This document shows, one piece after another, positions 12,540 through 42,617 of a stretch of 64,000 nucleotides of DNA. The DNA is from Polyangiaceae bacterium. GTDB lineage: Bacteria > Myxococcota_A > Polyangia > Polyangiales > Polyangiaceae. The first letter of the stretch is position 1. Each line of letters starts with the position of its first letter. The DNA is taken from positions 752,334 to 816,333 of the forward strand of contig JAXLYR010000002.1 of NCBI GenBank assembly GCA_046351325.1. Direction: 5' to 3'. Under the pieces are notes generated by a model, which worked only from the letters and a program-made list of their open reading frames with translations, searched no databases and was not told the DNA's origin. The translations under genes and the position numbers were made by a program.

Positions 12540-12579
12540 CGCCGTGCACTAGGCGTGTGCGGCGACGACCGCAAGCGGG

Positions 12580-14187: not shown

Positions 14188-14736
14188 CTAGCCCATCGCG
14201 GCGATGAAAATGAGCGGGACGGCGGCACCGAGGTCGAGCCGAAACATGAAGACCTTGGCTGGGCGGAGCACGCCCTCGATCGTGTCGAGCTCGTAGCCGC
14301 CCTCGAACGCGAGCACCCCCATGAAGGCCTGAACGGAGCCACCAAAGCGACCGCCGACGAAGGTCCAATCGTCCCGCCACGTGCCCGCGAGGACCTTTGC
14401 CTCGAGCAGGCCCGCGAACATCGGGCAACCGCCACCGATGCCGATACCCCCGATGAAGGCCGTGACGTCCCCGCCCTTGTCGAGGCCGACGGTGGGGGCG
14501 ACGAGGAATTGAGGACTGAGCGGGTGGGTCAGCGCCATCTCACGCCCGAAGTAGAGGTTCACACCAGCGGTGACGTCGAAGTCGAAGCCGTCGGTCGGGC
14601 CGGGCTCGGGACCGATGGAAGAGCGGTCGCCAAAGCCGAGGCGTACCGTCGGCAGGGGCGTCTTACCGCCCTCGGCCGAGGCGCGGATGGAATAGGTGAG
14701 CGCCGCCGCGGTCAACGCGAGCACGAGAGCCTTCAT
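14188..14736 (-). CDS. Secreted Gly-rich protein, possible small beta-barrel; immediately downstream of vgrG1
   Basis: Signal peptide MKALVLALTAAALTYSIRASA; alternating hydrophobic pattern; no recognisable family. Confidence 0.4.
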   Translation of the reverse strand: MKALVLALTAAALTYSIRASAEGGKTPLPTVRLGFGDRSSIGPEPGPTDGFDFDVTAGVNLYFGREMALTHPLSPQFLVAPTVGLDKGGDVTAFIGGIGIGGGCPMFAGLLEAKVLAGTWRDDWTFVGGRFGGSVQAFMGVLAFEGGYELDTIEGVLRPAKVFMFRLDLGAAVPLIFIAAMG

Positions 14737-14879
14737 GGTGTTAGAAGCTATAACGGTGTTAAAGAAAATCAACCCGCAGGCGCCGATCTGTTACGCCTCG
14801 CTCGTCTTTGTGAGCGACGCGCGGCCTTCGTACGGCGTCGAGTGGGCGTGTCACCGCGCGGCGGTGGAGGGCGACGCGG

Positions 14880-17378: not shown

Positions 17379-18046
17379 TCGGGCTGACCGCTCGCATCCA
17401 CGAGCGCGTCTCGAGTGGCTTGGTCGAGCTCACCTTCAGGTAGGCCGGCGGCGCGCTGAAAGGCCTTCACCGCACGGGGGACGTCAGCCTCTTCGATCGG
17501 TCCACCCGACGTGAGATATCCCAGGTTCTCGAGCCGTTTCGCGACGCCCGCGACGGTGGTGGATGGGTCCACGTCACCGACGACCAATTGGTACTTGCGC
17601 TCGAAGTTGACGACGTCGAGCAGGATGGTCTTTGTCGTGATTGGACACTCCAGGGTCACGCGGACAATCTTCTGCGAAGGGCTCGCGCTCTCCCCGACTT
17701 CTTCCTTGGTCACCCGCGCGCCGCTAGCAGGGTCGACTGTGCATCCTGGTGTTTCGGGGGCGAGCTCACAGCCGGTGAAGCGCAGCTCGAGTTCGAGCCT
17801 CTGAAGCGGGACGGTCGCCTGATATTGATTGGTCGACTGCTTGCGGAGCGACGCGCCGCTGAGCTTACTTATTGGAAGGTAAATGACGTCGCCCGGAGAC
17901 AGGACGTCAGGCGACGCCCGCAGCGCGCGCAGCTTGTCGTTGGACGCGTGATTCCACACCTCGTCCACTGTCGCGCCGCGCTCGAACGCCAAGGCCTGCA
18001 AGTGGTCCCCGCGCCGAATGATGTACGGTCGATAGTCCTCAGCCAT
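17375..18046 (-). CDS. LysM domain plus C-terminal peptidoglycan-binding (PG_binding_1-like) domain protein
   Basis: N-terminal LysM (YIIRRGDHLQALAFERGATVDEVWNHASNDKL…PGDVIYLP). C-terminal LENLGYLTSGGPIEEADVPRAVKAFQRAAGLPEGELDQATRDAL resembles a PG-binding helical bundle. Translationally coupled to vgrG1. Confidence 0.7.
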   Translation of the reverse strand: MAEDYRPYIIRRGDHLQALAFERGATVDEVWNHASNDKLRALRASPDVLSPGDVIYLPISKLSGASLRKQSTNQYQATVPLQRLELELRFTGCELAPETPGCTVDPASGARVTKEEVGESASPSQKIVRVTLECPITTKTILLDVVNFERKYQLVVGDVDPSTTVAGVAKRLENLGYLTSGGPIEEADVPRAVKAFQRAAGLPEGELDQATRDALVDASGQPD

Positions 18047-18055
18047 GGGTCGTGC

Positions 18056-20077
18056 TCACGGGTCGAGCGGGTCCCGGATATTGATTCGAAGGACACGCGG
18101 GTGAGGGACGAGGACGGCGTGCATGCGCTTATCGAGCTTCTTGTAGAAGTCCTTGTTCGCAAGGTAGCGCTTGCGTAGCCGCGCCCAGGCGTCCTTGTCG
18201 AGCTGGTCCATCTCTTCGTCGTTCGTCCCATAAGGTCCCGACTCGCAGAACGTGCAGAACTCGCTCGAGTCGCCGATGAACCAGTGCGGTCGGTAGCCAA
18301 GCTCCGTCTTGCAGCGGGAGTTGTATTGAGACCACCACGGAGACTGGAAGTAGAAGGCTTGGTCATCCATGAGGGGGATGACGCCGATCATCGCCGCGAG
18401 CGCCCCGCCTGCCATCATGACCGCACCAGCCGTCATGACCTCGTCTGCGTCATCGTTGCCCTTCATAATCGTTTGGGAGGCGATGACCATGGCCGTGCCC
18501 GCCACCCCCATGGCGCCCGCGGCCACGGTGCCGACGATTGCACCCGTATCGATGCTTTTCGCCTCGCCCCCGGTGGTGATCAAGTAGGGCCCATGGAGCC
18601 CGTAGGCCATCAACAGGCGACTTGCGTTCCGCAAGTTCGTCGTGCTGTGGCGAGCGCGCGGCTCGCGAATGACGAACCGTGCGGGGGCGCCCTCGATGTC
18701 CGAGTCGGGAGACAGCGCGTACTTGCGCATGAGCTCTGCTTCGGTCTGGTCGGTCCCGAGCGGATACACCCCGCCGCCGCTCATCACCACGAACGGCGCG
18801 AGCTGGGTCGGCGGTACGCCCGCAATATCCGTGAAGGTCTGCAGGTCCTTGAGGGCTTGGTCGACGCGCCTGGCGCCCTCCTCGGAGACGTATTTCGAGA
18901 CCTCGTCGCTGCTGAGGGCGGTGTAGCCGGGGACGATCACCGCGTCGAAGGGCTGGGGGTACGGGTCGCTGACGATCTGTCGTGGCCCGCCACCAGGGCG
19001 CACGTGGACGGCACGTGGCTCGCCCCCGAGACCATGCATGGCCGCGTAGCTCTTGAGCGCTTGCTCGACCTCACTGTCACGCGGCCAGGGGTCGCCCGCC
19101 ACCGAGCGCACGATGAGGTCGCGCAAGACCTCTCCAGCTTTGGTCAGTCGCTCCTCACCATATTCGTAGGCGGTCTCCTCCGCCGCGGGCGGTGGCTCGG
19201 CGTAGTTATGACAGTAGGTGTCGTCGTCGAGCGCCTCGGTGAGGAGTAGCGCGAACATCATCGTGCCGCTGATGACAGTCGGCTTCTTGGTCGGTATCGG
19301 TAAGCTTACCGTCTTGACACTGGACGCTACGCCCGAGAGGCGCCCGAGTTCCCCTGGCACCTCCCCAGGTGAAACATAGGCCTTCACAGCGTCGAGTCGC
19401 GCATACTCCAGAAGGATGGCGCGCAGGAACGCGGCGCGCAGCGGCATGCAATAGTAGAGAAAACCGTGCCGATACACCCGCCCGTCCGCGAGCGCGCCGC
19501 CGTATTCTCCACCCGCCCCGAGGATCGCCAACCATGCAAGACAGTCCTGGTCGCGGGTGATGGGGCCCTGCCACTCCGGATTGGATAGATACGTCCCGGG
19601 CGTGGCATCTGCCTCGAATACCAAGCTGCGAGAGCTCTCGATTGCATTCTTCGGGTTGGGAGAGGATACGAGCCGCGCGAACTTCCACGACGTGGCGGAC
19701 GAGAGCGTCCCGGAGAGGTCCGCGGGGCGGAAGCCGTAGAGCCTTCCCAGGTGAGCCAGCCGGTCGGTTGAGACGGCGTCGGCGGTCTCGGCGTTTGCCC
19801 GACCGAGCCAATCGGCGATCTCGAGCCCGGTATCGTGGTTCGGGGCTACGCGAAAGAGCCACGCGTCCACTCGCTCACGGATATGGGCGATTGCGGCGTC
19901 GCGCGTCGAGTCGTCAGCGGCCCGCGCGTATGCGTCGACTGCGCTAGCGAGGGGAGGCAGGTCCCTATTGGTGACTTCCGTCATGGGGGTGGGCGGTGTC
20001 GTGTGCGCGTACGAGCTGAGACCCGGGAATGGCCGATCGCCAGCCCCATTGCGGGAAGAGACCACAGTTCGACCCAC
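18056..20077 (-). CDS. Membrane protein with DUF218 (YdcF/ElyC/SanA-like) domain and Cys-containing C-terminal domain
   Basis: DUF218-like block DAVIVPGYTALSSDEV…FVVMSGGGVYP…TEAELMRKYAL…STTNLRNAS. Gly/Ala/Met-rich TM segments (AIVGTVAAGAMGVAGTAMVIAS…). C-terminal WFIGDSSEFCTFCESGPYG. Start uncertain (GTG 20077 or ATG 19984). Confidence 0.55.
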   Translation of the reverse strand: MGRTVVSSRNGAGDRPFPGLSSYAHTTPPTPMTEVTNRDLPPLASAVDAYARAADDSTRDAAIAHIRERVDAWLFRVAPNHDTGLEIADWLGRANAETADAVSTDRLAHLGRLYGFRPADLSGTLSSATSWKFARLVSSPNPKNAIESSRSLVFEADATPGTYLSNPEWQGPITRDQDCLAWLAILGAGGEYGGALADGRVYRHGFLYYCMPLRAAFLRAILLEYARLDAVKAYVSPGEVPGELGRLSGVASSVKTVSLPIPTKKPTVISGTMMFALLLTEALDDDTYCHNYAEPPPAAEETAYEYGEERLTKAGEVLRDLIVRSVAGDPWPRDSEVEQALKSYAAMHGLGGEPRAVHVRPGGGPRQIVSDPYPQPFDAVIVPGYTALSSDEVSKYVSEEGARRVDQALKDLQTFTDIAGVPPTQLAPFVVMSGGGVYPLGTDQTEAELMRKYALSPDSDIEGAPARFVIREPRARHSTTNLRNASRLLMAYGLHGPYLITTGGEAKSIDTGAIVGTVAAGAMGVAGTAMVIASQTIMKGNDDADEVMTAGAVMMAGGALAAMIGVIPLMDDQAFYFQSPWWSQYNSRCKTELGYRPHWFIGDSSEFCTFCESGPYGTNDEEMDQLDKDAWARLRKRYLANKDFYKKLDKRMHAVLVPHPRVLRINIRDPLDP

Positions 20078-20197
20078 TCGTCGACAGGCAGCTCACGCGA
20101 ATGCCCCGCACGTCCGTCGAGCCCGGCCCCATCGGGCTCGGTCGCGGACGTTGTGACATGACTATCGATGAAGCTACGGTGCTGTAATCGACGGGCC

Positions 20198-28778: not shown

Positions 28779-28788
28779 ACGCCTCGCT

Positions 28789-28848
28789 GATACAGCCCCC
28801 GCTGATACAGGGGTGATACAGGGCGCGCTGATACAGGGCTGATACAGG
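28789..28848. promoter_or_regulatory. Array of five direct repeats TGATACAG(G) with alternating 15/11-bp spacing, ~80 bp upstream of vgrG2
   Basis: Directly read: copies begin at 28789, 28804, 28815, 28830, 28841. Confidence 0.6.
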
Positions 28849-28927
28849 CGAACCGACGCCGTGCGCGCAGAACAGCGCTCGTGGAGCATCGCGCTCGACG
28901 GCACGCGCGCTGCACTGGTGGGTCGCC

Positions 28928-30415
28928 ATGTCGCAACCCACGAGACCCATGCTGCCCCTCGAGCGGAAGGGCACACCCGCTCGGGTGGACCTCTCCTCTC
29001 CGGACTTCGACTTCCAACACTTCTTCGTGCGCAAGCTCGTCGCGCGCGAGGGCGTCTCGGAGCTCTACCGCTGCACGCTGCACCTCGCCTTGCCGACCTC
29101 CGCGAACGCCGACGTCACCGTCGCGAGCGCGATCGGCGCGGCGGTCCGCATCGAGCTCGTCGACCAAGGCGGAACGCCGGTGGGCGTGCTTCACGGCATC
29201 GTCGACGGCGCGAGCATCACCGGCGGCGAGGAGAGCCACGGCCTCGAGGCCTGGGAGATCACGGTCGCTCCGCGCGCTGCGCGCCTCGCGCTCGTGACGA
29301 CGCAGGAGATCTTCATGCAGAAGTCGGTGCCGGCGATCATCGCGGCGAAGCTGGAGGAGGCGGGGCTCGGCTCGAGCTTCGCGATGCGCCTCAGCGGGAC
29401 GTACCCGGAGCGCGAGTTCGTCGTCCAATATCGGGAGACCGATCTCGACTTCATCTGCCGGCTCGCGGAGCACGTCGGCATCTCGTTCTCCTTCGAGCAA
29501 GGCGAGGACGAGGAGATCATGGTCTTCACCGACGACACGAAGGCTCTCGCGCCGGAGCTCAGCGAGCGCGTCGTGTATTCGCCGCGGCGCGATGTCCTCG
29601 GGGTCTTCGAGCTCACGCGACAAGCTCGCATCATCCCGACGGTCTACGCGGTCCAGGACTACAACTATCGAAACCCGAACCTCGACGTCGGGGCGATCGT
29701 CGAGAGCGCGCTCGGCTCGGGTGGCGGCGTCGTCGAATACGGCGCGCACCAGAAGGACCCGGACGAGGGCAGGTGGCTCGCGAAGGTGCGCGCCGAAGAG
29801 GCCGAAGGGCGCGCGTGTTCTTACGCTGGTGTAAGCGTCGTCGGGGGCCTGAGCGCGGGCGTCCACTTCGCGCTCGAGTCAGCGCCGCCCTGGGCGGACG
29901 CCTCGCTCTTCGTCGTCCGCGTCGAGCACGAGCTGTCGACCCCGCTCGGTGGTGATGCCTCGGAGGCCGCGCGGTACGTGAACCGCTTCACGGCGATCTC
30001 GTCGAACACCCGCTTCCGACCGGCGCGCTCGACACCTCGCCCTCGCATCCACGGGGTGGTGAGCGCGGTCGTGCAGGGCTCGGGCGGCTCGAGCTACGAG
30101 GCCAACCTCGATCCGCAAGGCCGCTACCTCGTGCAGTTCCACTTCGACACCGCGGAGCCCGGGCTGCCGCAGCCGTCGAGGCCGGTTCGTATGTCGCAGC
30201 CCTTCGCAGGGCCGAACCAAGGCATGCACTTTCCGCTGCGGCCCGGGACGGAGGTGCTCGTCGTCTTCATCGACGGCGATCCCGATCGACCCATCATCGT
30301 CGGCGCGGTGCCGAACACGGTGACCCCGAGCGTCGTCACCGCCGTGGAGTCGCAGCGCCACCGCATCCAGTCTCACCACGGCCTGCTCGTGCAGTTTGGC
30401 AAATCGCTTGCTTAG
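28928..30415 (+). CDS. vgrG: Type VI secretion spike protein VgrG (copy 2), short form lacking most of the C-terminal beta-helix
   Basis: VgrG N-terminal/gp27-gp44 blocks: FQHFFVRKLVAREGVSELYRCTLHLALP, VVQYRETDLDFICRLAEHVGISFSF, VQFHFDT…QPFAGPNQGMHFPLRPGTEVLVVFIDGDPDRPIIVGAVPN; ends 495 aa. Confidence 0.85.
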   Translation: MSQPTRPMLPLERKGTPARVDLSSPDFDFQHFFVRKLVAREGVSELYRCTLHLALPTSANADVTVASAIGAAVRIELVDQGGTPVGVLHGIVDGASITGGEESHGLEAWEITVAPRAARLALVTTQEIFMQKSVPAIIAAKLEEAGLGSSFAMRLSGTYPEREFVVQYRETDLDFICRLAEHVGISFSFEQGEDEEIMVFTDDTKALAPELSERVVYSPRRDVLGVFELTRQARIIPTVYAVQDYNYRNPNLDVGAIVESALGSGGGVVEYGAHQKDPDEGRWLAKVRAEEAEGRACSYAGVSVVGGLSAGVHFALESAPPWADASLFVVRVEHELSTPLGGDASEAARYVNRFTAISSNTRFRPARSTPRPRIHGVVSAVVQGSGGSSYEANLDPQGRYLVQFHFDTAEPGLPQPSRPVRMSQPFAGPNQGMHFPLRPGTEVLVVFIDGDPDRPIIVGAVPNTVTPSVVTAVESQRHRIQSHHGLLVQFGKSLA

Positions 30416-30429
30416 TCAGGAGAAGACCA

Positions 30430-32012
30430 TGAGTGACACCCAAGGAACGACGAGCAGCAGCAACGGCAGCAACGGATCGACGGCGTCTCAGCCCGTATCG
30501 GAGACGGTCCCCGAGCATTTCCGCATCCTCGTGCCGAACCCCGAGACCGAGCTCCAGCTCGGGCAGGGCGACGCGGTCTCGGGTGGCGCGGCCTTCGTCG
30601 GCATCGCCGGCCGCGTGAAGAAGGGCGGTGTTCTCTTCGCCGCCGGAGGTTTCCCGGGTGGGCTCCAGGCCGAGGACGGGAGCTTCGAGCAGTTTCGCAA
30701 GGCGCACACGACGATCTCCGTTGCGGTCAGCGGCATCGCCGCGGCCTCGCTGCTCTTCAGGTCCGCTTATCAACGCAAGGAAATCTGCCTCTTCGATCTC
30801 GTCGTGAACGGCCTCCTCGGCTTCGCCGCGCCGGCAGGCATCGGCGTCGCTTTCGGGGCGATGGATAACGGGATGTCGAGCGCGGACGGCAGCATCGCGC
30901 TCTACGGCGACAAGAACGTCGCGATCGCGACCCCGATGACCTTCGGCGCTACCGCCGGCCTCGCCGCCTCGATCAACGGTGGGATCGTCGCGTCGCTCAA
31001 CGCGACCGGCGCGGCCTCGGTCAACGCGGTCGTGGCGAGCGTCAACGGCGTGTGGAAGGCGAACGTCGGCGCGATCGAGACGAACATCATCGCCGACAGC
31101 AAGCTCACGCTGGCCTCTCGTCGCGGCGGCGCACTCGTCGCTGGCGAGACGATCCAGATCGGCCAAGCCACGGCGAAGATGCCGCTGCTCGATCGATTCC
31201 TGAGCGGCGGGCAGTACGGGACCAAGCGGGTCGACCTGCGCGCCGACGAGGTCATCCACATGGAGCCGGGCGACGAGAAGACCAAGATCGCGGGCGCGCC
31301 GACCAAGCTCCACCTCGACAAGAAGACGGTCCGCGCCGAGACGACGGGCAGCGCGCTGACGCTCGACGCGAGCGGCACGTGGCACGCCGGCAACTCGATC
31401 ATGAAGCTGAGCTCCGACAAGCTGTCGCTCTGCTTCGGTGCGGTCGCACCGAAGGAGGCCTCCGACGCGATCATCAAACCGGCAGAGGTCGCGTGGAAGG
31501 AGGCGCAGGACGCCGCCGAAGAGATCGAGGAGACCGTCGACAAGGTCGGGTTCGCGAAGGCCGGTCTGCTGCTCGGGACGGTCGCTGGCGGCATTTCGAC
31601 CGCGATCGTTGGAGCTCAAAGCATGAGCGACGATCAGAAGTCGATGATCGATCTCGCGGCTCTCGGCGCCGGCATGGCGCTCGGGCCCCTCGCCGGGTTC
31701 GGTGTCGCGAAGGCCGTCGAAAAGGTCCTCACGAGCAAGGCGCAGGCAGCGGCCCGCAAGGCCGCGGACAAAGCCCTCACGGCGGCGGTGAAGGGAGGCC
31801 TCAAGGCGGAGCAGGCCGCTGTCAAAGCGCAGGGCAAGCTCCCGACGAACCCGGCGATCGAGCTCGCCTCGAGCGGCGTCACGCTGCGAGTCGGCAAGTC
31901 GAAGATCACGATCTCCGCGACGGAGATCTCGATCGAGACCGCGCCGGGACTCGAGGTGAAAATCAACGGCAGCACGTTCTCCGCCACTGGCGTCAGCCTT
32001 GCAGGGACCTGA
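30430..32012 (+). CDS. Uncharacterised 527-aa Gly/Ala-rich protein with hydrophobic segments and beta-helix-like repeats; candidate VgrG-associated cargo or split spike C-terminus
   Basis: RBS aggagaag before the ATG at 30430; hydrophobic stretches (TISVAVSGIAAASLLF, LVVNGLLGFAAPAGIGVAFGAM); periodic segments reminiscent of a VgrG beta-helix; Lys/Ala-rich helical C-terminus. Confidence 0.5.
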
Positions 32013-34563
32013 GGAACAACCCATGGCGCCCGTGATCTCCAACTCGACCAACCTCAAGCTCGGCTTCTTTTGGTGTCAGCTCGACCCCCCGACCCACGGC
32101 GTGACCTTCGTCGTGAAGGGCACGTACGATCTCGTGCACGGCGCCGCGGCGCGTGCGGTCGACGCTGAAAACGCGCTCTCGCTCGCGGGAGACGAGAGCT
32201 ACGAGGACGGCGGCAAGGCCTGTCGCTACCCGTCCGACTTCGCGCCGAAGAAGGCCCGCGCCGACGTGATGGTCGTCGGCGCCGCGACCTCGCCCGAGCC
32301 GGTGAAACGCATGGAGATCGCGCTCAAGCTCGGGGCGCTCGACAAGCGCCTGCTCGTCGTCGGCGATCGCGTGGCGGAGCATCACTCGGGCAAATGGATC
32401 GCGAGCGAGCCTAAGCCCTTCACGCGAATGCCGCTCCGCTACGAGCGCGCGCTCGGCGGACCGAGTTTCCTCAAGAACCCGATCGGCTGTGGCGTGCGTC
32501 CCACCGAGGGGGAGAGCACCTGTCCGATGCCCAACCTCGAGCTCCCGGGCAGGGTGAGCTCGACGGAGCCGGCAGGCCTCGGGCCGCTCGATCGCCGATG
32601 GGCCGACCGCATGTCGAAGGTCGGGACCTACGACGCGACCTGGAGAAAAGAGCGGTGGCCGTGGTTCCCGAAGGACTTCGACTTCGCGTATTTCAACGCG
32701 GCTCCGCTCGACCAGCAGATCGAGCTCGTGCGCGGTGACGAGGCGATTCGGCTCGAGGGCTTGCGCGGCGCCGCGTTCGAGTCGCGGCTCCCGGGCGTTC
32801 GACCGCGGCTCTTCGTGAGGCGGCCCACGGGTGACGCCGAGGTCGCGCTCGCGATCGACACCGTCTGGATCGACGCGGACGCGGCTCGCCTCGTCCTCGT
32901 GTGGCGCGGTCACATCAACGTCGAATCGAAGCGCTTCGAAGAGATCTCGAGCGTCGTCCTCGCGAGCGAGGAGCTCGCGTCGCCGCTCCGGCCTGCGAGC
33001 GAACACCTCGCGGCTGCCGTGCGTCGCGAGCCGACCGAAGAGGAGCTCGCCGATCGCGAGGAGGCGGAGGCGCGCGCCGACTCGGAGAGCGACGAGGCGC
33101 CCGCGAACCCCGAGAACGACGAGGAGGCCGCTGTTCGCGAGGCGAAGGAGCTCCTCGTGAAGGGCGGCGCACCCGCAGAGCTCCTCGCGAAGCTCGAGAA
33201 CGTCCGCACGACGGACGCGATGCTCGAGGTGCTCCAGCGCGAGGGCCCGAGCGCCGAAGGCGCGAGTGAGGCCGATATCGCAGCGGCGCACGCCCACGCG
33301 CGACAGGTGATGCTCGCGAACGGCGTGGACCCTTCGGCGCTCGAAGATCTCACCGAAGAGGCGCCCGCGACCGAGCCCGAGCCGAGCGCGACGCTGCGTC
33401 TCGATCGAGAGGACGTCCTCGCGCGACGCGCTGCGGGCGAGGATTTGGACGGCTTCGATCTCAGCGGCGCCGATCTCTCGGGGTTGGACCTCGCGCGCGT
33501 CAGCATGCGAAAGACCCGCCTCGTCGGCGCGCGCCTCGACGGCGCGCTGCTCGCTGGCGCGATCCTCACGGGCGCCGACCTCGAGGGCGCCCACGCGACA
33601 GCGGGCCCCGTGATCTTCGCGGGCGCCGATCTCACGGAGGCGAAGCTCGCTCGCGTCGTGTTTCCGGGCGCGGTGTTCGAGAGCGCCGACCTCACGCGCG
33701 CCTCGATGAAGGGCGCGCGGTTGGCACGCGCGTCGCTTTCTCTGGCCGTCATGGAAGACGCTGACTTGTCGGAAGCCGACCTCTCACACGCCGATCTCTC
33801 GGGCGCGAACCTCGCTCGGCCTCGCTCGACGCGAGCCGCTGCTCGCGTCGAACCTCACCGAGGCCGACCTCACGGACGCGAAGCTCGGTCGGCGTCACCG
33901 CGGGCGCGGAGCTCACGCAGACCTCGCTCGTCGGCGCGACGCGCTCCGCGGCGCGCAGCTCGACAAGGCGCGGGCCGCGGGCGCGAAGTTCGCGAGCGCC
34001 GATCCCCTCGGGTGCGTCGCTCGACGACGTCGTCCTCGACGGGGCCGACCTCACGAGCGCGAAGCTCGGGGCGCGCGCGGCGCCCGCGCCCGCTCCGCGA
34101 GGCCGTCCTCGAGAAGGCTGCCGGCGCCGAGCTCGATCTCGCGGGCGCCGATCTCAGCGGCTGCGCGCTGCCGGCGCGATGCTCGCGGGCGCTCGCTCTG
34201 AACGCGTCGCGCGCCCGAGAGCGCCTGGTCGGGCGCCGATCTCGCGGGCGCTCGCTTCGACGGCGCGGAGCTCGAGCGCGCCGACTTCACCGAGAGCGCG
34301 CTCGAGCGCGCCTCCTTCGACCACGCACCACGAAGCACGCGGTCCTCGTGCGCGCTCGCCTCGCCGGTGCGCGCCTGACGAAGGTCAACCTGCTCCGCCT
34401 CTACCTCGAGGCGCGCGGACCCGCGAACGCCGATTGTAGGAGCTCAAACTTCTTCGAGAGCGAGTTCCTCGACGCTGTTCTTCACGGGCGCGCTCTTCGA
34501 TCGCTCGAACTCCTCGGCCGCATTCAAGCTCGACAAGCGGAGCGCCTCGTGAAAACGCCGTGA
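31999..34563 (+). CDS. DUF2169-domain protein fused to pentapeptide repeats; 3-prime third disrupted by multiple frameshifts
   Basis: N-terminal DUF2169-like region (NSTNLKLGFFWCQLDPPTHGVTFVVKGTYDL). Clean pentapeptide repeats from ~33420 to ~33820 (ADLSGLDLARVSMRKTRLVGARLDGALLAGAILTGADLEGA…); beyond that repeats continue only across shifted frames. Confidence 0.7.
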   Translation: MQGPEEQPMAPVISNSTNLKLGFFWCQLDPPTHGVTFVVKGTYDLVHGAAARAVDAENALSLAGDESYEDGGKACRYPSDFAPKKARADVMVVGAATSPEPVKRMEIALKLGALDKRLLVVGDRVAEHHSGKWIASEPKPFTRMPLRYERALGGPSFLKNPIGCGVRPTEGESTCPMPNLELPGRVSSTEPAGLGPLDRRWADRMSKVGTYDATWRKERWPWFPKDFDFAYFNAAPLDQQIELVRGDEAIRLEGLRGAAFESRLPGVRPRLFVRRPTGDAEVALAIDTVWIDADAARLVLVWRGHINVESKRFEEISSVVLASEELASPLRPASEHLAAAVRREPTEEELADREEAEARADSESDEAPANPENDEEAAVREAKELLVKGGAPAELLAKLENVRTTDAMLEVLQREGPSAEGASEADIAAAHAHARQVMLANGVDPSALEDLTEEAPATEPEPSATLRLDREDVLARRAAGEDLDGFDLSGADLSGLDLARVSMRKTRLVGARLDGALLAGAILTGADLEGAHATAGPVIFAGADLTEAKLARVVFPGAVFESADLTRASMKGARLARASLSLAVMEDADLSEADLSHADLSGANLARPRSTRAAARVEPHRGRPHGREARSASPRARSSRRPRSSARRAPRRAARQGAGRGREVRERRSPRVRRSTTSSSTGPTSRARSSGRARRPRPLREAVLEKAAGAELDLAGADLSGCALPARCSRALALNASRARERLVGRRSRGRSLRRRGARARRLHRERARARLLRPRTTKHAVLVRARLAGARLTKVNLLRLYLEARGPANADCRSSNFFESEFLDAVLHGRALRSLELLGRIQARQAERLVKTP

Positions 34564-34726
34564 CCGACGCCCTCTCGCGCCTGCGCCTCGACCGAAGCCC
34601 GAGGTCGTCTCCGACCTCGACCTCGCGGCGCGGATTTCCGCAACCTCGATCTCGAGGGGATCGCCTTCTTTCGAGTGAACCTCAAGGGCGCGAACCTTCC
34701 GGGCGCGCCTCGCGGACGCCACGCTC

Positions 34727-36622
34727 GTGAGCTGCGAACTCACCGGCGCGAAGCTCGCGGGCGCGGATCTCCATGGCGTGCGCGTCGCGGCGCGCGAGGT
34801 GGTCGGGGCCTCTCCGGCCGACGCGAGCGCCGACGCTGGCGAAGACGAGCTCTCGAAGCTGCTCGCGTCCCAAGGCGTGGGCGGCCTCAAGCCCACCATC
34901 GCGGCGATGCGGAGCGTCGACCTCCGCGGCGCGAACCTCACGGGCGCGATCATCGCTGGCGCCTGCATCGACGGCGCTTGGTTCGACGACGCGAACCTCA
35001 CCGGCGCGCTCCTCACCGAGTGCTCGCTCGAGCGAGCGTCCCTGCGCGGCGCCGATCTCTCGAGCGCGACCATCGAAGAGAGCTCGCTCGCGAACGCGGA
35101 TCTCTCGGGCGCGAAGCTCCCGCGCGCGGTGCTCGTGAGCGTGAACCTCACCGGCGCCTCGCTCGCCGGGGCGCACCTGTCGAACGCGTTGCTCACGGGC
35201 CTCGCGCTCGAGGGCGCCGTCTTCGAGGGCGCGACCGTCGAGCACTGCACGCTCACGAACGTCACGCCGGCCGACGTCGCGCTCACCGGCGCGACCCTCG
35301 TCAACGTCTCGATGCCCGGCATGAACCTGCGAGGCGCGCGGCTCATGCCCGATCAGCGCGGCGCCGATCTCTCGGGCTGCGATCTTCGCGGGCTCGATCT
35401 GTCAGGGTTTTTGCTCGCGGACGCGAACCTCGCCGGCGCCGACCTCTCCGGCGCGCGCCTCGTCAGGGCCGACCTCTCGAGCGCCGATCTCTCGGGCGCG
35501 AACCTCAAACACGTCGACCTCTCGCGCGCCGCCGCGTCGAGCGCGTCGTTCAAGGCCGCGAACCTCGAGCGCGCCCGCCTCGCCGGGGCCACGCTCGACG
35601 ACGCCGATCTCGAAGGCGCGAACCTCTCGCGCGCCGCGCTCGACGGCGCGACGCTGCAAGGCGCGAAGTTCGGCGGCGCCGATCTCAGCCTCGCGAGCCT
35701 CTCCGAGTGCACGCTCGAGGACGTCGATCTCTCGGGTGCGTCGCTCGTCGGCGCGAACCTGCGCGGCGCGAAGCTCCTCGGCGCGACCGTGCAGAGCGCC
35801 ACGTTCGCCCGCGCGATCCTCACGGGCGCGACGCTCGAGTCGATCGATCTCTCCGAGAGCTCGCTCGAGGAGGCGCATCTCGAGCGGACGACCTGGTCCT
35901 CGTGTGATCTCAGCCGCGCGAACCTCACCGCGGTGAACCTGCGCGGCGCTCGAGCGAAGGGCACGCGCTTCGCGGGCGCGACGCTCCACCGCGCCGACCT
36001 CGTCGGCGCTGACCTCGTCGGCGCGGTGCTCGACGGCGCCGACCTGTCCGGCGCGCACCTCTCCGGCGTGTCGATCACCAGGTCTTCGCTCCGCGGCGTC
36101 GATCTCCGCGGCCTCTCTCTCGACGGCGCGTGCCTCACCGACGACGACCTCGCGAGCGCCGATCTCAGCGGCGCGAGCCTCTCGGGGGCGCGCCTCGATC
36201 GCTCGGATTTCACGGGCGCGCGCCTCGCGAAGGCGCGGCTCACGCAGGCCATCTTGGTCGCCGCGACCTTCACCGAGGCCGAGCTCGACGGCGCCGACCT
36301 CTCCGAGGTCGACGCGACGGACGCCTGCTTCGAGGCCGCCTCGCTCGTTGGCTCGAAGCTCACGCGAGCCCGCCTCGACAACGCGCGGCTCGAGCGCGCC
36401 CGCGCCCCGCACGTGAACCTCTCCGGAGTGCACGCGCGCTACGCAGACTTCTCCCACGCCGACCTCGACAGCGCCGAGCTCCGCGGCGCGGACCTGACCG
36501 GCGCGAACCTGCACGCGACGCAGCTCGGCGGCGCGCACCTTGCAAACGCAAAGGTCGACGGTCTTCGCGAGACCGACCCCGAGCTCCTCGCTGCGGAGCG
36601 CTGGGTCGCGCCGCGCGATTGA
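34727..36622 (+). CDS. Pentapeptide-repeat protein (A(D/N)LxG repeats throughout)
   Basis: Hundreds of residues of ADLSGANL/ANLTGA-type repeats; likely begins further upstream (~34560) across frameshifts. Confidence 0.8.
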   Translation: MSCELTGAKLAGADLHGVRVAAREVVGASPADASADAGEDELSKLLASQGVGGLKPTIAAMRSVDLRGANLTGAIIAGACIDGAWFDDANLTGALLTECSLERASLRGADLSSATIEESSLANADLSGAKLPRAVLVSVNLTGASLAGAHLSNALLTGLALEGAVFEGATVEHCTLTNVTPADVALTGATLVNVSMPGMNLRGARLMPDQRGADLSGCDLRGLDLSGFLLADANLAGADLSGARLVRADLSSADLSGANLKHVDLSRAAASSASFKAANLERARLAGATLDDADLEGANLSRAALDGATLQGAKFGGADLSLASLSECTLEDVDLSGASLVGANLRGAKLLGATVQSATFARAILTGATLESIDLSESSLEEAHLERTTWSSCDLSRANLTAVNLRGARAKGTRFAGATLHRADLVGADLVGAVLDGADLSGAHLSGVSITRSSLRGVDLRGLSLDGACLTDDDLASADLSGASLSGARLDRSDFTGARLAKARLTQAILVAATFTEAELDGADLSEVDATDACFEAASLVGSKLTRARLDNARLERARAPHVNLSGVHARYADFSHADLDSAELRGADLTGANLHATQLGGAHLANAKVDGLRETDPELLAAERWVAPRD

Positions 36623-36656
36623 GCCCCACCCCAACCCCACGGAGAGAACGAACCCG

Positions 36657-37466
36657 ATGATCCAGGCCTCGAGCATTTCGTCGCACGCACCCATGACCTC
36701 GAGCGGAGCCGCGGTGGCGCCGCAGCCGACGGGCGCGTGGGTGAGGCAAGGGCGCGTCGTCGCCTCGGCCGCGCCCGGCACCGTCTGCGTCGCGATCAGG
36801 CGCGAGAGCGGCGAGCCCGATGCTGTCCTCGCGCAGCTCTCGAGCGCAGCGATGGACGCGCAGGCCGGTGACGAGGTCGTGGTGCTCGGCGAGGGCGAGT
36901 CCGCGTTCGTGATGAGCGTCCTCGGCGCCGCGCGTGGGCCGAGCGCGCGCGCCGTCGTCGCGCGGTCGGGCGCGAGCGCTTCACTCGACGAGCACGCGGG
37001 CCGCGAGCGGCTCGTCGTGCGCGATCGCGACGACAAGGTCCTCTTCGAGGTCGACGCCGAGACGGGTCGCACGGTCATCAGCGCCGCGCGCGGCAACCTC
37101 GCGCTGCGCGCGCCCGACGGCGATCTCGAGCTCGAGGCGAAGGGCGCGGTGCGCGTCCGCTCGCAGGCCTTCGACGTGAGCGCCGAGAAGGCCGAGCTCG
37201 CCCTCGACGACGTCGCGTTCGCGGGCGAGCGCCTCCGCGCGAAGATCGGTGACGTCCGCAACGTCTTCGGGCGCCTCGAGACCGTCACCCAGCGCCTCTT
37301 CGAGACGGCGAAGAGCGCCTTCCGCAATGTCGAGGACCTCAGCCAGCTGCGCGCCGGCCGCGTCCGCACCCTCGTCAAGAAGGGCTACTACGTGCGAGGT
37401 GGCCACGCCGCGGTCGAGGCCGAAGAGGACGTGAAGCTCGACGCCAAGCAGATAAGGCTCGGCTGA
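36657..37466 (+). CDS. DUF3540-like protein (conserved in vgrG-DUF2169-pentapeptide islands)
   Basis: Position and size (269 aa) match the DUF3540 slot between pentapeptide and DUF4150 genes; motif pattern …ALRAPDGDLELEAKGAVRVRSQ…; RBS ggagag before the ATG. Confidence 0.55.
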   Translation: MIQASSISSHAPMTSSGAAVAPQPTGAWVRQGRVVASAAPGTVCVAIRRESGEPDAVLAQLSSAAMDAQAGDEVVVLGEGESAFVMSVLGAARGPSARAVVARSGASASLDEHAGRERLVVRDRDDKVLFEVDAETGRTVISAARGNLALRAPDGDLELEAKGAVRVRSQAFDVSAEKAELALDDVAFAGERLRAKIGDVRNVFGRLETVTQRLFETAKSAFRNVEDLSQLRAGRVRTLVKKGYYVRGGHAAVEAEEDVKLDAKQIRLG

Positions 37467-37522
37467 GCCGAGCGTCGACTAGTCAGTATATAACCCCCAA
37501 TCCAACAGAGAGGTGTATTGAT

Positions 37523-37936
37523 ATGTTTCCGGTCGCGACGGCAGGTGGTGGCAGCTGCAGTGCATTCCCCGATACGTGCAAGACCCCTGCGCCCCCGGCG
37601 CCGCCCGTCCCCACGCCTTATCCCAATATGGGCAACTTGACCCAGGCGAACCGCGGCACCGCGTCGAAGAAGGTCAAGATCATGAACCAACCCGCCATCC
37701 TGGTGAACACCCAGATCTCGATGACGAGCGGGGATGAGGCGGGCTCGGCCGGCGGCGTCGTCTCGAGCACCATCAAGGGCCCCGCCAAAGCCCAGAAGGG
37801 CTCGGTCAAGGTCAAGGCCGAGGGCCAGCCCGTCGTCTTTCAGACTTGTCCATTCGGGCAGAACGGCGTCAGCGCCAACGCACCAGCCGGTATCCAAGAC
37901 TCGCCCTCTCAGTCCAAAGTCACTGTTACGATGTAG
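37523..37936 (+). CDS. DUF4150 PAAR-like domain protein (T6SS spike-tip)
   Basis: N-terminus MFPVATAGGGSCSAFPDTCKTPAPPAPPVPTPYPNMG matches the DUF4150 signature (MF.V…G.C.AFPDVCKTP…P.PYPN); 137 aa with no toxin extension. Confidence 0.8.
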   Translation: MFPVATAGGGSCSAFPDTCKTPAPPAPPVPTPYPNMGNLTQANRGTASKKVKIMNQPAILVNTQISMTSGDEAGSAGGVVSSTIKGPAKAQKGSVKVKAEGQPVVFQTCPFGQNGVSANAPAGIQDSPSQSKVTVTM

Positions 37937-37978: not shown

Positions 37979-38539
37979 GTGGCGGCGGGCTCACCGTGCG
38001 TCTATGGACACTCCGTGCTTGCTTGTGTCGACGTCGGTTATGGTGAAGAGAGCGCGCTCGCGGCCTGCCTCGGGTTCCAGGCGTGGTCCGACGCCGAAGA
38101 GGCGTGCTGCGCGCGCGTACGCATCACCCACGTCGAGCCGTACGAGCCTGGCGCGTTCTACAAGCGAGAGCTGCCGTGCGTCCTCGCGGCGCTCCGCGCG
38201 TTGGATAGACCCGTAGAGGTCGTCGTCATCGACGGGTACGTGTGGCTCTCCGAGGGCGACAGCCCTGGTCTCGGGGCGCACCTGTTCGACGCGCTCGATC
38301 GGCGCGTCGTCGTCGTCGGCTGCGCCAAGACGGCCTTCAGGGGCTCGAGCTTTGCGCTTCCCGTGCTGCGTGGTCACAGCCAGAAGCCCCTCTTCGTCAC
38401 GGCCGCGGGGGTCGCCCCAGAGACCGCCGCCGACTGGGTGCGCGCGATGCACGGGGCGCATCGCATCCCGACGCTCCTCAAGCGGGTCGACCAATGGTCT
38501 CGAGAGTCGTCCCGAGGGGAGCTCGGCCCTCCCGGTTGA
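37979..38539 (+). CDS. nfi: Endonuclease V (deoxyinosine 3-prime endonuclease)
   Basis: [10 protein letters not shown]…[40 protein letters not shown] parallels E. coli Nfi (AGADVGFEQ…[34 protein letters not shown]); true start may be upstream. Confidence 0.65.
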
Positions 38540-38573
38540 CGAGCTGAGGGCTAGCGTCTATCGTCCTCTTACG

Positions 38574-38930
38574 ATGAGCGCGGCCAGCCCCAATAGCCCC
38601 GCTAGCGAGCCCTGCTGTCCGCCGCCCAACGAGCAGGCGGACCTCCGCCCGATCGAGGGCGACGACGCCGACGAGGAGCTCGCCGCCCTCTCGAAGGCCC
38701 TGGGCCACCCAGCGCGCGTGAAGATCTTGCGCATCCTATTGCGCAAGAACGCCTGCATTTGTGGCGATATCGTCGAAGAGCTGCCCCTCGCGCAGTCGAC
38801 CGTCTCCCAGCATTTGAAGGTGCTGAAGGAGGCAGGCCTCGTCCGCGGTGAGGTCGACGGCCCGCGTGTTTGTTATTGCATCGAGCCGCGCACACTGCGC
38901 CGGCTGCGCGCGCTGGTCGGGGGGCTTTAG
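38574..38930 (+). CDS. arsR: ArsR/SmtB-family metalloregulator
   Basis: HTH block [18 protein letters not shown]…[30 protein letters not shown] with metal-binding Cys pair; heads the ars operon. Confidence 0.85.
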
Positions 38931-38986
38931 GTCCTATTCCGTTTGGTTAGCTAATCGTGCATCGCCGATAATCGAAAGGGTCTCCC

Positions 38987-39352
38987 ATGTCCTCGACCAC
39001 CATCCGTGTCTTCGACCCCGCAATGTGCTGCTCGACGGGTATCTGCGGTACTTCCGTGGACCAAGATCTCGTTCGCTTTGCGGCGGATCTCGACTGGCTG
39101 AAGAGCCAGGGCCTCTCGGTCGAGCGGTTCAATCTGTCGCAGCAGCCCGCGGCGTTCGTGGAGGACGCGGCGGTGAAGGCCACGCTCGAGGCTCGCGGTG
39201 AGGCCGGTTTGCCCGTCGTCGAGGTGAACGGCGAGATCAAGAGCAGCGGCGTGTACCCGACCCGCGACGAGCTCGCGGCGTGGGCAGGCGTCGCGCCGAC
39301 CCCAGCCCCGGTGAAGCGCGCGGGCAGCTGTTGTGGTGGCGGCTGCAGCTGA
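38987..39352 (+). CDS. arsD: Arsenical resistance operon metallochaperone/repressor ArsD
   Basis: VFDPAMCCSTGICGTSVDQDLV…ERFNLSQQPAAFV…CCGGGCS, near-collinear with R773 ArsD. Confidence 0.9.
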   Translation: MSSTTIRVFDPAMCCSTGICGTSVDQDLVRFAADLDWLKSQGLSVERFNLSQQPAAFVEDAAVKATLEARGEAGLPVVEVNGEIKSSGVYPTRDELAAWAGVAPTPAPVKRAGSCCGGGCS

Positions 39353-39376
39353 CCTCCAGGGAGAGCCCGCGCCGTC

Positions 39377-41134
39377 ATGTTGATCGAGCACCCCACGCGC
39401 ATCCTCTTTTTCACCGGCAAGGGGGGCGCCGGCAAGACCTCCGCGGCCTGCGCGACCGCGATCGAGCTCGCGGACGCGGGCAAGCGCGTGCTGCTCGTCA
39501 GCACCGATCCTGCCTCGAATTTGGACGAGGTCCTCGGCGTGCGACTCTCGTCCGCGCCGACGAGCGTGCCCGGAATCCCAGGGCTCGCCGCGCTCAACAT
39601 CGACCCGGAGGAGGCCGCGCGCGCGCACCGTGAGCGCGTCGTCGGCCCCTATCGCGGCGTGCTCCCGGCCGCCGTCGTCGCAAGTATGGAGGAGCAGCTC
39701 TCCGGAGCGTGCACCGTGGAGATCGCCGCCTTCGACGAGTTCTCCAAGCTGCTCGCCTATCCGAGCGCGACCGGTGCGTTCGATCACGTCGTCTTCGACA
39801 CCGCGCCGACGGGGCACACGCTGCGCCTCTTGGAGCTGCCCGCGGCCTGGTCGAACTTCATCGACGCGAGCGTCGGCGGCACGTCCTGCTTGGGTCCGCT
39901 GTCCGGGCTCGCCGCGCAGAAGAGCCTCTACGCCGCGTCGAACGAGGCCCTCCGCGACGCGACGCGCACGAAGCTCGTCCTCGTCGCGCGACCCGAGCCC
40001 TCGTCCCTCGCCGAGGCCGAGCGCACGCGGGCGGAGCTCTCCGACCTCGGCGTGCGAAACGTCGCGCTCGTCCTCAACGGCCTCTTCCGCGCGGCCGATC
40101 CCAGCGATCGCACGGCGGTCGCGATGGAGGCGCGGGGTCGCGCGGCGCTCGAGCGCATGCCGAGCGGGCTCGGGGCGCTGCCCACCGTCGAGGTGCCGCT
40201 CTTCTCGTTCGGCCTCGTCGGCGTCGAGGCCCTGCGCAGCATGACGAAGCGCGGCGGCGCCGAGATGAAGGTTACACAGCGTACAAGTCAAAATGAGCCC
40301 GCCGTCCTCGCGCGCGGCGGCCGGCTCGACGCCCTCGTCGCGGAGCTCGCGGAGCGTCGCAACGGCGTCGTCCTGACCATGGGCAAGGGCGGCGTCGGCA
40401 AGACGACGATCGCGGCGCTCGTCGCGAGTGGGCTCGCGCGCCTCGGTCGAGAGGTCACGCTCACGACGACCGATCCGGCGGCCCACGTCGAGGCCGCGAT
40501 TCGTGAGCTCGGCGTCGCCGCGGACACGCTGCGCGTCAGCCGGATCGATCCGGCGCTCGAGACGAAGCGATACACCGAGGCCGTGCTCGCGACGGCAGGC
40601 AGCGGCCTCGACGCACAGGGCAGGGCGCTGCTCGAAGAGGATCTGCGCAGCCCCTGCACCGAGGAGATCGCCGTGTTTCGCGCGTTCGCCGAGACCGTCG
40701 CGGCGGGCGAGGATCGCTTCGTCGTCATCGACACGGCGCCGACGGGTCACACCATCCTGCTCCTCGACGCGGCCGAGGCTTACCACCGCGAGGTCCTGAA
40801 GAAGCCGAGCGGCAGCCCCGAGGCCGTGCAGCGCCTCCTGCCGCGCCTGCGAGACCCAGCGTTCACGCACGTGCTGCTCGTGACCTTGCCCGAAGCGACG
40901 CCCATCCACGAGGCGCTCGGGCTCGAGCGAGATCTCGTTCGCGCGGGCATCCAGCCCTTCGCGTGGGTCGTGAACCAGAGCCTCACGCCGCTCGCGCTCA
41001 CCGATCCGATCCTCACGACCCGCAGGGCGCTCGAGGCCACGCACCTCGCCGAGCTCGCGACGCACACGAGCCACGTCACGCTCGAGCCCTGGACCGCGGG
41101 CCTCTCGGTCACGGCGAAGACGACGAACTCATGA
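39377..41134 (+). CDS. arsA: Arsenite-transporting ATPase ArsA (two-domain)
   Basis: Two P-loops ([12 protein letters not shown] and [11 protein letters not shown]), [12 protein letters not shown] and [12 protein letters not shown] signature blocks. Confidence 0.9.
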
Positions 41135-42195
41135 CCGAAAAGACCGGCCTCCTCCGCAAGCTCTCGTTCCTCGATCGCTACCTCACGGTGTGGATCTTCG
41201 CGGCGATGGCGCTCGGCATCACGCTGGGCTTCGTCGCGCCGGGGTTCACCGCCGCGCTCAACCGAATGAGCGTCGGCACCACGTCGATCCCGATCGCGAT
41301 CGGCCTCGTGCTCATGATGTACCCGCCCCTCGCGAAGGTCCGCTACGAGGAGCTCGGCAAGGTCTTTCGCAACAAACGCGTGCTCGCGCTCTCGCTGGTA
41401 CAGAACTGGGTGATCGGGCCCGTGCTCATGTTCGGGCTCGCCGTGATCTTCCTGCGAGACAAGCCCGAGTACATGCTCGGCCTCATCCTGATCGGCCTCG
41501 CGCGGTGCATCGCGATGGTCATCGTCTGGAACGATCTGGCGAAGGGCGATCGCGAATACTGCGCGGGCCTCGTCGCCTTCAACTCGATCTTCCAGGTGCT
41601 CTTTTTCTCGGTGTACGCCTACTTCTTCGCGACGCTGGTGCCGCGGTGGCTCGGGCTCTCCGGGGCCGTCGTGAACATCACCATCGCCGAGATCGCGAAG
41701 AGCGTCGCCATCTACCTCGGCGTCCCGTTCGCTGCGGGGTTCCTCACGCGGCGCGTGCTCGTCAGCGCCAAAGGCCGCGACTGGTACGAAGCGCACTTCG
41801 TCCCGCGCGTCGGTCCGATCACGCTCGTGTCGCTGCTCTTCACGATCGTCGTGATGTTCTCGTTGAAGGGGGAGGCGATCGTGGAGCTTCCCCTCGACGT
41901 GCTCCGCATCGCGGCCCCGCTCCTCATCTACTTCGTCGTGATGTTCGCGGCGTCGTTCTTCATGAGCAAGCGGGTCGGCGCGGACTATCCGCAGTCGGCG
42001 ACGCTCTCGTTCACGGCCGCGTCGAACAACTTCGAGCTCGCCATCGCCGTCGCGATCGCGAGCTTCGGCATCCACAGCGGCGCCGCGTTCGCCGCGGTGA
42101 TCGGCCCGCTCGTCGAGGTGCCCGTCCTCATCGGCCTCGTGAACGTCGCGCTCGCCGCCGAGCGACGTTTCTTCAGAAAGCTCGAGCCCTCATGA
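41131..42195 (+). CDS. acr3: ACR3-family arsenite efflux permease
   Basis: [33 protein letters not shown]…; ~10 TM helices; ATGA overlap with arsA and arsC. Confidence 0.85.
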
Positions 42196-42617
42196 CCGAC
42201 CAATCGAAAGCCGTGCTCTTCCTCTGCGTCGCGAACTCGGCGCGCAGCCAAATGGCCGAGGGCCTCGCCCGCATGCTGTTCGGCGATCGCGTCCCCGTGA
42301 TGAGCGCCGGCAGCGAGCCCACGACCGTCAATCCGTACGCCATCGAGGTCATGCGCGAGCTCGGCGTCGACCTCGGCGCGCACGTCTCGAAGTCCGTCTC
42401 GACCATCGATCCAGCCACGATCCGCACGGTCGTCACGCTCTGCGCCGAGGAGGTCTGCCCTGCGTTTTTGGGCAGCGCGCGGCGGCTCCACTGGCCGATC
42501 CCCGATCCCGCGAGCAAAGACCCGACGCTCTCGCGAGCCGAGATGCTCACGCGCTTTCGCACGGCGCGCGACACCCTCCGCGGCCTCCTGGAGACGCAGT
42601 CGGCTTTGTTTATTTGA
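42192..42617 (+). CDS. arsC: Arsenate reductase (LMW-PTP family, thioredoxin-coupled)
   Basis: [14 protein letters not shown]-loop (CX5R) and downstream Cys (TLCAEEVCP). Confidence 0.85.

Follow-up and report, generated by a model that had tools for sequence, protein, structure and literature searches.

A 64,000-nucleotide stretch of DNA from a Polyangiaceae bacterium (contig JAXLYR010000002.1; the whole stretch is called the window here) carries a six-gene island that combines a short VgrG, the spike protein in a type VI secretion system (T6SS), with a 527-aa protein and four accessory proteins of the DUF2169, pentapeptide-repeat, DUF3540 and DUF4150 families. Judged from sequence, it is fairly probable that the island encodes a two-piece spike, made of the short VgrG as hub and the 527-aa protein as a needle encoded in trans, on an operon of the recently defined Tvp class III, and that this spike may be membrane-active. 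We propose this because the VgrG lacks a β-prism, because the Tvp accessory set and its PIPY cap need the tip of a prism, and because the gene between them encodes a conserved protein, parts of which resemble a prism and its tip. As far as the searched literature shows, a split spike whose needle carries membrane-type helices would be an undescribed variant, and the evidence for it is convergent but modest.

In the mechanism that we envision, TvpAB, TvpB and TvpC would chaperone the 137-aa PIPY cap and pass it to the spike. The 495-aa VgrG would give only the gp27-like hub and the OB fold, and a separate, trimeric 527-aa protein would supply a β-helical needle that docks on this hub and ends in a blunt tip on which the PIPY cap is seated. 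TvpC would stand in for the needle in the complex that precedes loading. Two charge-free helical hairpins in the needle would make the fired spike membrane-active, so that the 527-aa protein is probably the missing cargo.

The short VgrG and its accessory genes

We assigned domains by scanning the open reading frames (ORFs) of the operon against Pfam and NCBIfam, and compared the island with six related loci (L001 to L005 and a 19-kb JGI contig), each over 10 kb to either side or to the end of its contig. L003 is from Sorangium cellulosum (CP012670), L005 from Sorangium sp. So ce861 (CP150353) and L002 from another Polyangiaceae metagenome-assembled genome. An earlier note on this DNA had listed the genes as VgrG, an unknown 527-aa protein, a DUF2169-pentapeptide fusion, a pentapeptide protein, DUF3540 and DUF4150. 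All six genes and their domain calls hold, and the profile searches proposed there as a check (DUF2169, DUF3540, DUF4150 and PF05954) were all positive. Its start at 28,787 lies upstream of an in-frame stop (28,829–28,831), so the VgrG gene starts at 28,928 or 28,949.

The short VgrG contains Phage_GPD (PF05954; E = 1e-60, residues 40–337) and Phage_base_V (PF04717; E = 4e-9, residues 393–460), and thereby both the gp27-like hub and the gp5 OB fold. It scores 282 bits against TIGR03361, for which the cutoff is 186, over profile positions 10–449 of 513, and also exceeds the cutoff of the T6SS-specific model TIGR01646. Neither Gp5_trimer_C nor DUF2345 was found in the 495-aa protein with the Pfam and NCBIfam models, and the last 64 positions of TIGR03361 (450–513) are unmatched. 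The OB fold ends at about residue 460–467 and the chain stops some 30 residues, or one strand, later, with no β-prism. Without a prism there is no blunt prism end, which a cone of the PAAR or PIPY type needs.

This C-terminus is not peculiar to the window. The final residues of the 495-aa chain read "...SQRHRIQSHHGLLVQFGKSLA"; the ending ...HRIQSHHGLLVQFGKSLA, followed directly by the stop, is conserved in homologs, and the same C-terminus occurs in four other loci, two of them in complete Sorangium genomes. Among the 120 best homologs, 118 are 443–517 aa long. The other two (671 and 684 aa) have N-terminal extensions, probably from mis-called starts, and an equally short C-terminus. A short VgrG without a prism is the norm in Sorangium and Polyangiaceae. 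We considered whether it was a frameshift artifact of a long VgrG and rejected this, as independent assemblies, the complete Sorangium genomes among them, have kept both the stop and the separate start downstream.

By domain content and order, the accessory genes of the island fall into a known, recently characterized system. Sachar et al. (JBC 2025; PMC11883445) found DUF2169 genes in strict co-occurrence with vgrG and DUF4150. They gave the DUF4150 domain the name "PIPY" and described DUF2169 as a chaperone required for the PIPY-VgrG spike; in their synteny type C, a DUF2169 protein fused to pentapeptide repeats is encoded together with a pentapeptide protein and DUF3540. Monlezun, Earl & Coulthurst (EMBO J 2026; PMC13373197) named the proteins TvpAB, TvpB and TvpC, defined the arrangement as Tvp class III and noted TvpA in Myxococcota. 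There, TvpC is a VgrG mimic (an OB fold plus a prism) that enters a pre-complex with TvpAB, TvpB and Paar1 and is then displaced by VgrG1. The gene set and order of the island are those of class III and of type C, with the DUF2169 protein, the fused and separate pentapeptide repeats, DUF3540 and DUF4150/PIPY all present. The earlier statement that the DUF2169, pentapeptide and DUF3540 proteins have no known function is outdated, as they correspond to the chaperones TvpAB, TvpB and TvpC, which load the PIPY cap via the TvpC pre-complex (PMC13373197, PMC11883445). Where the island departs from its class is the VgrG: class III VgrGs are reported to have 700–800 aa and the longest prisms (PMC13373197), and the 495-aa protein has no such prism.

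The individual accessory proteins agree with these assignments. DUF2169 (PF09937) covers residues 28–296 of the tvpAB-like product (E = 1e-81; 275 bits, cutoff 25) and is fused to pentapeptide repeats (PF00805; E = 1e-29), the family that also makes up the separate TvpB-like protein, whose orthologs have 693 and 712 aa. The tvpC-like product (PF12059) joins an OB-fold-like N-terminal half to a VgrG-like prism that ends in VKLDAKQIRLG, and its C-terminal part matches the prism of a second, long VgrG in the window (BLASTP E = 7e-5). That protein is a canonical VgrG of about 823 aa with Phage_GPD, Phage_base_V and Gp5_trimer_C, encoded at 14,880–17,351 on the minus strand. The cap protein (PF13665) has no other domain and no toxin extension, as had been said of this 137-aa PAAR-like protein before. 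Its PIPY motif is PVPTPYPN (residues 28–35), a P-T-P-Y variant of P(I/V)P(Y/F) with Thr for Ile/Val, and the protein is 69–72% identical to its orthologs in L001 and L002. The island had been regarded as a complete spike-loading module. It is indeed a vgrG-linked module apart from T6SS core genes, but its VgrG has no β-prism and the deposited tvpAB and tvpB frames are broken, probably through an artifact discussed below.

Needle-like segments and hydrophobic hairpins in the 527-aa protein

The 527-aa gene, described earlier as wedged between vgrG and the DUF2169 gene, is the key unknown of the island, but it is no arbitrary insert: it is a conserved operon member whose product has VgrG-needle-like segments. 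In the window, the JGI contig, L002 and L004 its place is between the short vgrG and tvpAB, and in L001 a gene of the same family comes immediately after the 3' end of a short vgrG, at the edge of the contig. A word-indexed search of 5.8 billion proteins returned six relatives, and a profile run exhaustively against 1.84 billion cluster representatives returned 55, of which 26 fall below E = 1e-30. Family members are nearly all 500–630 aa long. With the six-sequence alignment, the search for related loci gave one species-representative genome only.

From the N-terminus, the protein consists of β strands (residues ~30–63), a first hydrophobic hairpin (~86–145), a charge-free stretch rich in Gly, Ala, Ser and Asn (~150–250), a first prism-like segment (~259–340), a helical insert with a second, glycine-zipper hairpin (~341–470) and a prism-like tip with the motif VKING (~475–518). 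A profile of 33 family members, searched against all PDB sequences, gave four matches only, and every one is a spike protein. The best is the Francisella VgrG (6u9e_B; E = 2e-5, profile residues ~246–377), followed by a C-terminal fragment of Escherichia coli VgrG1 (3wit_A; E = 8e-5, residues ~452–507); the remaining two, to the phage baseplate protein entries 4s36 and 4s37, are weak. A profile of six sequences found the same top two matches with weaker scores, as is expected of a shallower profile if the remote homology is true. Searches of PDB with single sequences (the 527-aa protein, a 671-aa protein from L003 and a 565-aa protein from L005) were uninformative.

We also compared the family with a canonical VgrG prism, represented by that of the long VgrG in the window and two relatives, by profile-profile alignment in hhalign. 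Over the whole protein, the alignment had P = 2.5e-4. When excised, residues 255–345 matched with 83% probability (P = 9e-6) and residues 465–527 with 71% (P = 4e-5). The Gly/Ala-rich stretch (residues 150–260) showed no similarity to VgrG by hhalign, and the family did not match six TvpC sequences significantly (P ~0.05). Weaker hints come from NF041249, the model of the Francisella TssI, which scores E = 5e-4 on the 527-aa protein, and from matches of a β-helical trimerisation domain to four family members and of DUF2345 to one. Additionally, the family has a C-terminal motif, VK(I/V)NG, that is similar to the tip KIDGKQI seen in TvpC and the long VgrG.

An AlphaFold2 model built from 33 sequences shows this order of segments, with short N-terminal strands, a helical hairpin (residues 86–144), a poorly predicted Gly/Ala/Ser/Asn-rich stretch, short strands (276–336), four helices (341–470) and a second run of strands (476–518). 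The predicted local distance difference test (pLDDT) score was 82–95 over residues 260–370 and 66–93 over residues 430–520; an earlier model from six sequences was unusable (pLDDT 37.6). Foldseek found no PDB match to the 33-sequence monomer at E < 0.1, and we treat these monomer fold searches as neutral.

The segments between the strands have a composition of their own. Hydropathy averaged over the family peaks at residues 91–109, 121–139, 375–399 and 411–429, where 2–10% of residues are charged, and the second hydrophobic pair contains tandem GxxxG runs at 378–390 and 413–425. Both charge-free hairpins are conserved across the 33 members. The protein appears, then, to place conserved charge-free glycine-zipper helices between segments that resemble a VgrG prism and its tip, and these hydrophobic helices are of a kind able to span a membrane. 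The N-terminus is polar and leads into β strands, with no N-terminal signal or anchor. The hairpins suggest that the needle itself is the membrane-active cargo, in an echo of what was found for the class III spike of Serratia.

The proposed two-piece spike and its alternatives

Several observations weigh against a two-piece spike. A Rosetta-stone fusion of hub and needle was not found among the VgrG homologs or the 527-aa family, and none of the 55 profile-search relatives is fused to VgrG. The resemblance to a prism is modest (E = 1e-5 to 1e-4; hhalign probabilities of 43–83%), and the needle N-terminus (residues 25–85), which we presume to be the docking part, has no similarity to the start of the VgrG prism that hhalign could detect. 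The mean pLDDT of the 33-sequence model is low (65.6, as a monomer), and the hydropathy of hairpin 1 is only moderate. In the window, L001, L004 and the JGI contig, neither the 527-aa gene nor the operon as a whole is followed by a conserved immunity gene. The long VgrG, 11.5 kb away and with a similar tip motif, could be the acceptor of PIPY instead. Finally, the short vgrG (~480–517 aa) of the Sorangium loci L003 and L005 is linked to DUF2169, DUF3540 and PIPY genes but has different partners. In L003 these are proteins of 652 and 671 aa with Ig-like domains, a faint DUF2345 match and weak similarity to the 527-aa family profile; in L005 the partner is an unrelated 565-aa protein, and PIPY is fused to Peptidase_S41.

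The different partners in Sorangium are also compatible with exchangeable needles. More speculatively, spikes in Polyangiaceae could be modular, with a generic short hub, represented by hundreds of paralogs of ~480–500 aa, that takes interchangeable needles; the 527-aa family would then be needle and effector in one, its glycine-zipper hairpins unfolding after firing to form a depolarizing pore. If this tentative picture were true, it would put a concrete mechanism behind the "toxic spike" of Tvp class III, so far unexplained. The 2026 work on this class left two questions, namely why class III accompanies unusually long spikes and how Serratia VgrG1 depolarizes membranes with no toxin domain. 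In a two-piece spike, hub, needle and cap would be genetically separate, and each could be deleted, swapped or expressed alone; what TvpAB, TvpB and TvpC do, be it to shield the cap, the needle or the hairpins, would become directly testable. A family of hypothetical proteins would gain a likely role. The norm of a prism-less VgrG concerns organisms, Sorangium and Polyangiaceae, with very large genomes and many vgrG paralogs.

The closest known system is the Tvp class III locus of Serratia marcescens Db10 (VgrG1, TvpAB, TvpB, TvpC and Paar1; PMC13373197), which has the same accessory set in the same order downstream of vgrG. Neither locus has a recognizable toxin domain, and in both the spike itself is suspected of being membrane-active; the Serratia spike depolarizes membranes without an identifiable toxin domain (PMC13373197). 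In Serratia, however, a single chain of 786 aa forms VgrG1, whose prism is exceptionally long (186 Å), whereas here a prism-less 495-aa VgrG is accompanied by a separate 527-aa protein that has both the prism-like parts and helical hydrophobic inserts. The island also has no immunity gene like Vai1 (DUF3192), lies outside any T6SS cluster and belongs to a myxococcotal host. A spike with hub and needle on separate polypeptides is described for Francisella, whose central spike is (PdpA-VgrG)3 (PDB 6U9E, 6U9F and 6U9G; Yang et al. 2019, cited in PMC9600919 and PMC10653695). The PdpA hub is only partly gp27-like and the VgrG needle has 164–189 aa, whereas the island has a bona fide TssI N-terminal hub with an OB fold and a putative 527-aa needle with two hydrophobic hairpins; Francisella lacks the Tvp chaperone set. 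Split vgrG loci in Acinetobacter (PMC6838775) are a precedent from a bioinformatic note only, with a different split point, different partners and no reported hydrophobic insert or Tvp chaperones. Phage T4 gp27 plus gp5 stands beside them as a close known system.

A competing explanation, which we regard as unlikely, is that the 527-aa protein is an ordinary membrane-targeting cargo toxin, bound non-covalently to the short VgrG through its VgrG-like β strands, and that PIPY sits on the long VgrG or on the stub of the short one. Tse4, Ssp6, VasX and the C-terminal domain of Tse5 are glycine-zipper pore-forming T6SS effectors, with charge-free, Gly/Ala-rich GxxxG helices and an expected depolarizing action; such toxins are cargo, or are fused to PAAR or Rhs proteins, and come with immunity genes. 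The conserved hydrophobic and glycine-zipper hairpins of the 527-aa protein would suit a toxin of this kind, as would its gene position right after vgrG, which is typical of cargo. The tip of the long VgrG (KIDGKQILL) is nearly identical to the C-terminus of TvpC, and a long VgrG, there fused to PG_binding_1, also flanks the orthologous operon in L004. Yet the helices of the 527-aa protein are embedded between spike-like β-helix segments, we saw no sequence similarity to the glycine-zipper effectors, and no adjacent cognate immunity gene is evident or conserved. Two separate segments, the C-terminal end included, resemble the distal prism and tip of VgrG, and a PAAR-type cone would find no blunt prism tip on the short VgrG. 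The long VgrG, for its part, runs ~75 aa beyond its tip motif.

It is very unlikely that the island is a decaying, non-functional remnant, with tvpAB and tvpB as pseudogenes and without a remaining T6SS to serve. What favors this explanation is a patch of ~12 frame changes within 900 bp over the end of tvpAB and the start of tvpB, together with the lack of T6SS core genes within 64 kb. From ~33,800 the tvpAB frame shifts repeatedly, so that all three frames hold parts of its last ~250 codons. The L002 ortholog is intact at 810 aa, and a frameshift-aware alignment to it puts the true tvpAB stop at ~34,549–34,552; an apparent 854-aa ORF runs on to 34,563 in a wrong frame, open by chance, and its last ~250 residues are out of frame. 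The first ~50 codons of tvpB are likewise split over three frames, with N-terminal pieces that match the TvpB of L002 in frames 0, 2, 1 and 2, and the clean frame from 34,727 to the stop encodes 631 aa.

These disruptions are probably assembly artifacts, and the operon is probably intact in the organism. The gyrA homolog of the window (~49,990–52,440, minus strand) needs ~21 frame changes between 50,687 and 52,311 (1.6 kb) to align, yet 386 of 875 residues (44%), hallmark motifs included, are the same as in E. coli GyrA. Damage to an essential gene at the same density points to unpolished patches of the assembly, and given this we judge real pseudogenization of tvpAB and tvpB unlikely. Conservation of tvpAB is no lower in its out-of-frame pieces than elsewhere, the other ~8 kb of the operon are intact, and so are the orthologous operons in L002 and L004. 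The disrupted patch contains no homopolymer of at least five bases and has no close repeat elsewhere in the window, so neither homopolymer errors nor local repeats account for it.

The absence of T6SS genes nearby, as described before, is borne out: none of the core families (sheath, Hcp, TssM, ClpV, baseplate) was found in the ~53 flanking ORFs that we scanned against Pfam across the 64 kb, or in any of the six related loci. The latter result also disfavors the idea, raised in the earlier note, that the genes are a duplicated fragment of a complete T6SS locus. The orphan position had been thought notable; the position itself is as described, but orphan vgrG modules are commonplace and 0 of the 6 related loci adjoin T6SS core genes, which makes it ordinary. 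We presume the locus to be an auxiliary (orphan) vgrG operon that feeds a T6SS encoded elsewhere. T6SS genes have been reported in Polyangiales and Polyangiaceae (PMC10196010, PMC11821767), including bins of Polyangiaceae (PMC11821767), which speaks against a remnant without a system to serve.

It is highly improbable that the module works for a contractile injection system of another type, such as an extracellular contractile injection system (eCIS) or a tailocin, rather than for a T6SS. The lack of T6SS genes nearby would fit, and eCIS spike proteins are similar in size to the prism-less VgrG-like protein of ~490 aa. The VgrG, however, exceeds the T6SS-specific cutoffs of both TIGR models, we found no sheath, tube or baseplate gene of whatever type in the window or the related loci, and strict co-occurrence with T6SS spikes has been reported for DUF2169 and DUF4150 (PMC11883445). 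We give equally little credence to the 527-aa protein being an immunity or anchoring factor in the membrane of the producer cell, outside the projectile: its predicted hydrophobic helices and the membrane immunity protein encoded after Serratia vgrG1 would allow this, but typical immunity proteins are far smaller than 527 aa, the polar N-terminus carries no signal or anchor, and the needle- and tip-like β segments match VgrG in PDB.

Layout and surroundings of the operon

Coordinates of the operon genes and of the disrupted patch are collected in Table 1. The 527-aa protein is 100% identical to the NCBI entry listed there, and the VgrG is identical to its 488-aa entry; both entries come from a metagenome-assembled genome annotated as Polyangiaceae bacterium. 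All six genes are on the plus strand, with gaps of 7–56 nt where the gene ends are known, and the G+C content of the window is 65–73%. Scans for sigma-70 promoters and terminators within the operon were uninformative.

Table 1. Features of the vgrG island, in coordinates of the window
Feature	Coordinates	Strand	Details
VgrG hub gene	28928..30415	+	495 aa; NCBI start 28,949 gives 488 aa, labelled "TssI/VgrG"
Gene for the needle-like 527-aa protein	30429..32012	+	No Pfam family; NCBI: hypothetical protein U0271_10240
tvpAB-like gene	32023..~34552	+	DUF2169 domain, acidic linker, C-terminal pentapeptide-repeat domain
tvpB-like pentapeptide-repeat gene	~34565..36622	+	Pentapeptide (PF00805) E = 1e-116, 17 stretches
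tvpC-like DUF3540 gene	36657..37466	+	DUF3540 E = 1e-30, residues 136–269
DUF4150/PIPY cap gene	37523..37936	+	137 aa; Tox-PAAR-like E = 2e-30, residues 11–117
Patch of ~12 reading-frame disruptions	33799..34700		Codon-position GC, Viterbi frame trace, frameshift-aware alignment

Beside the long VgrG gene, ORFs at 17,430–18,055 and 18,056–20,092 carry a peptidoglycan-binding domain (sub-threshold) and DUF218, and a 200-aa ORF without annotation lies downstream of it at 14,188–14,790. At the related loci, genes for Ser/Thr protein kinases flank the orthologous operons in the JGI contig and in L004 (9,218–6,014), and L004 has in addition a divergent gene with a weak DUF2169 match upstream of the operon. 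COMMD-like genes of Myxococcota have been reported to cluster with VgrG, DUF2169, PAAR and kinase genes (PMC13392464, 2026).

Downstream, the island is bounded by an arsenic-resistance operon (38,217–42,617) with arsR-like, arsD and arsA genes and a low-molecular-weight phosphatase/arsC-like gene. A sigma-70-like promoter match lies in this region at 38,536–38,564, and ORFs at 41.1–43.9 kb change frame, have no transporter match and may be another poor patch of the assembly. Right after the PIPY gene, an ORF at 37,979–38,539 partially matches endonuclease V (profile positions 19–128 of 198). Truncation or sequence errors may account for this, and the ORF is not kept beside the operon in the other loci. 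Farther away, the window of this myxobacterial genome encodes a sterol-methyltransferase-like SAM methyltransferase with a Sterol_MT_C domain (E = 2e-21; 11,490–12,548, minus strand) and, in tandem at 54,954–59,360, two large proteins (749 and 718 aa) rich in CarboxypepD_reg-like domains.

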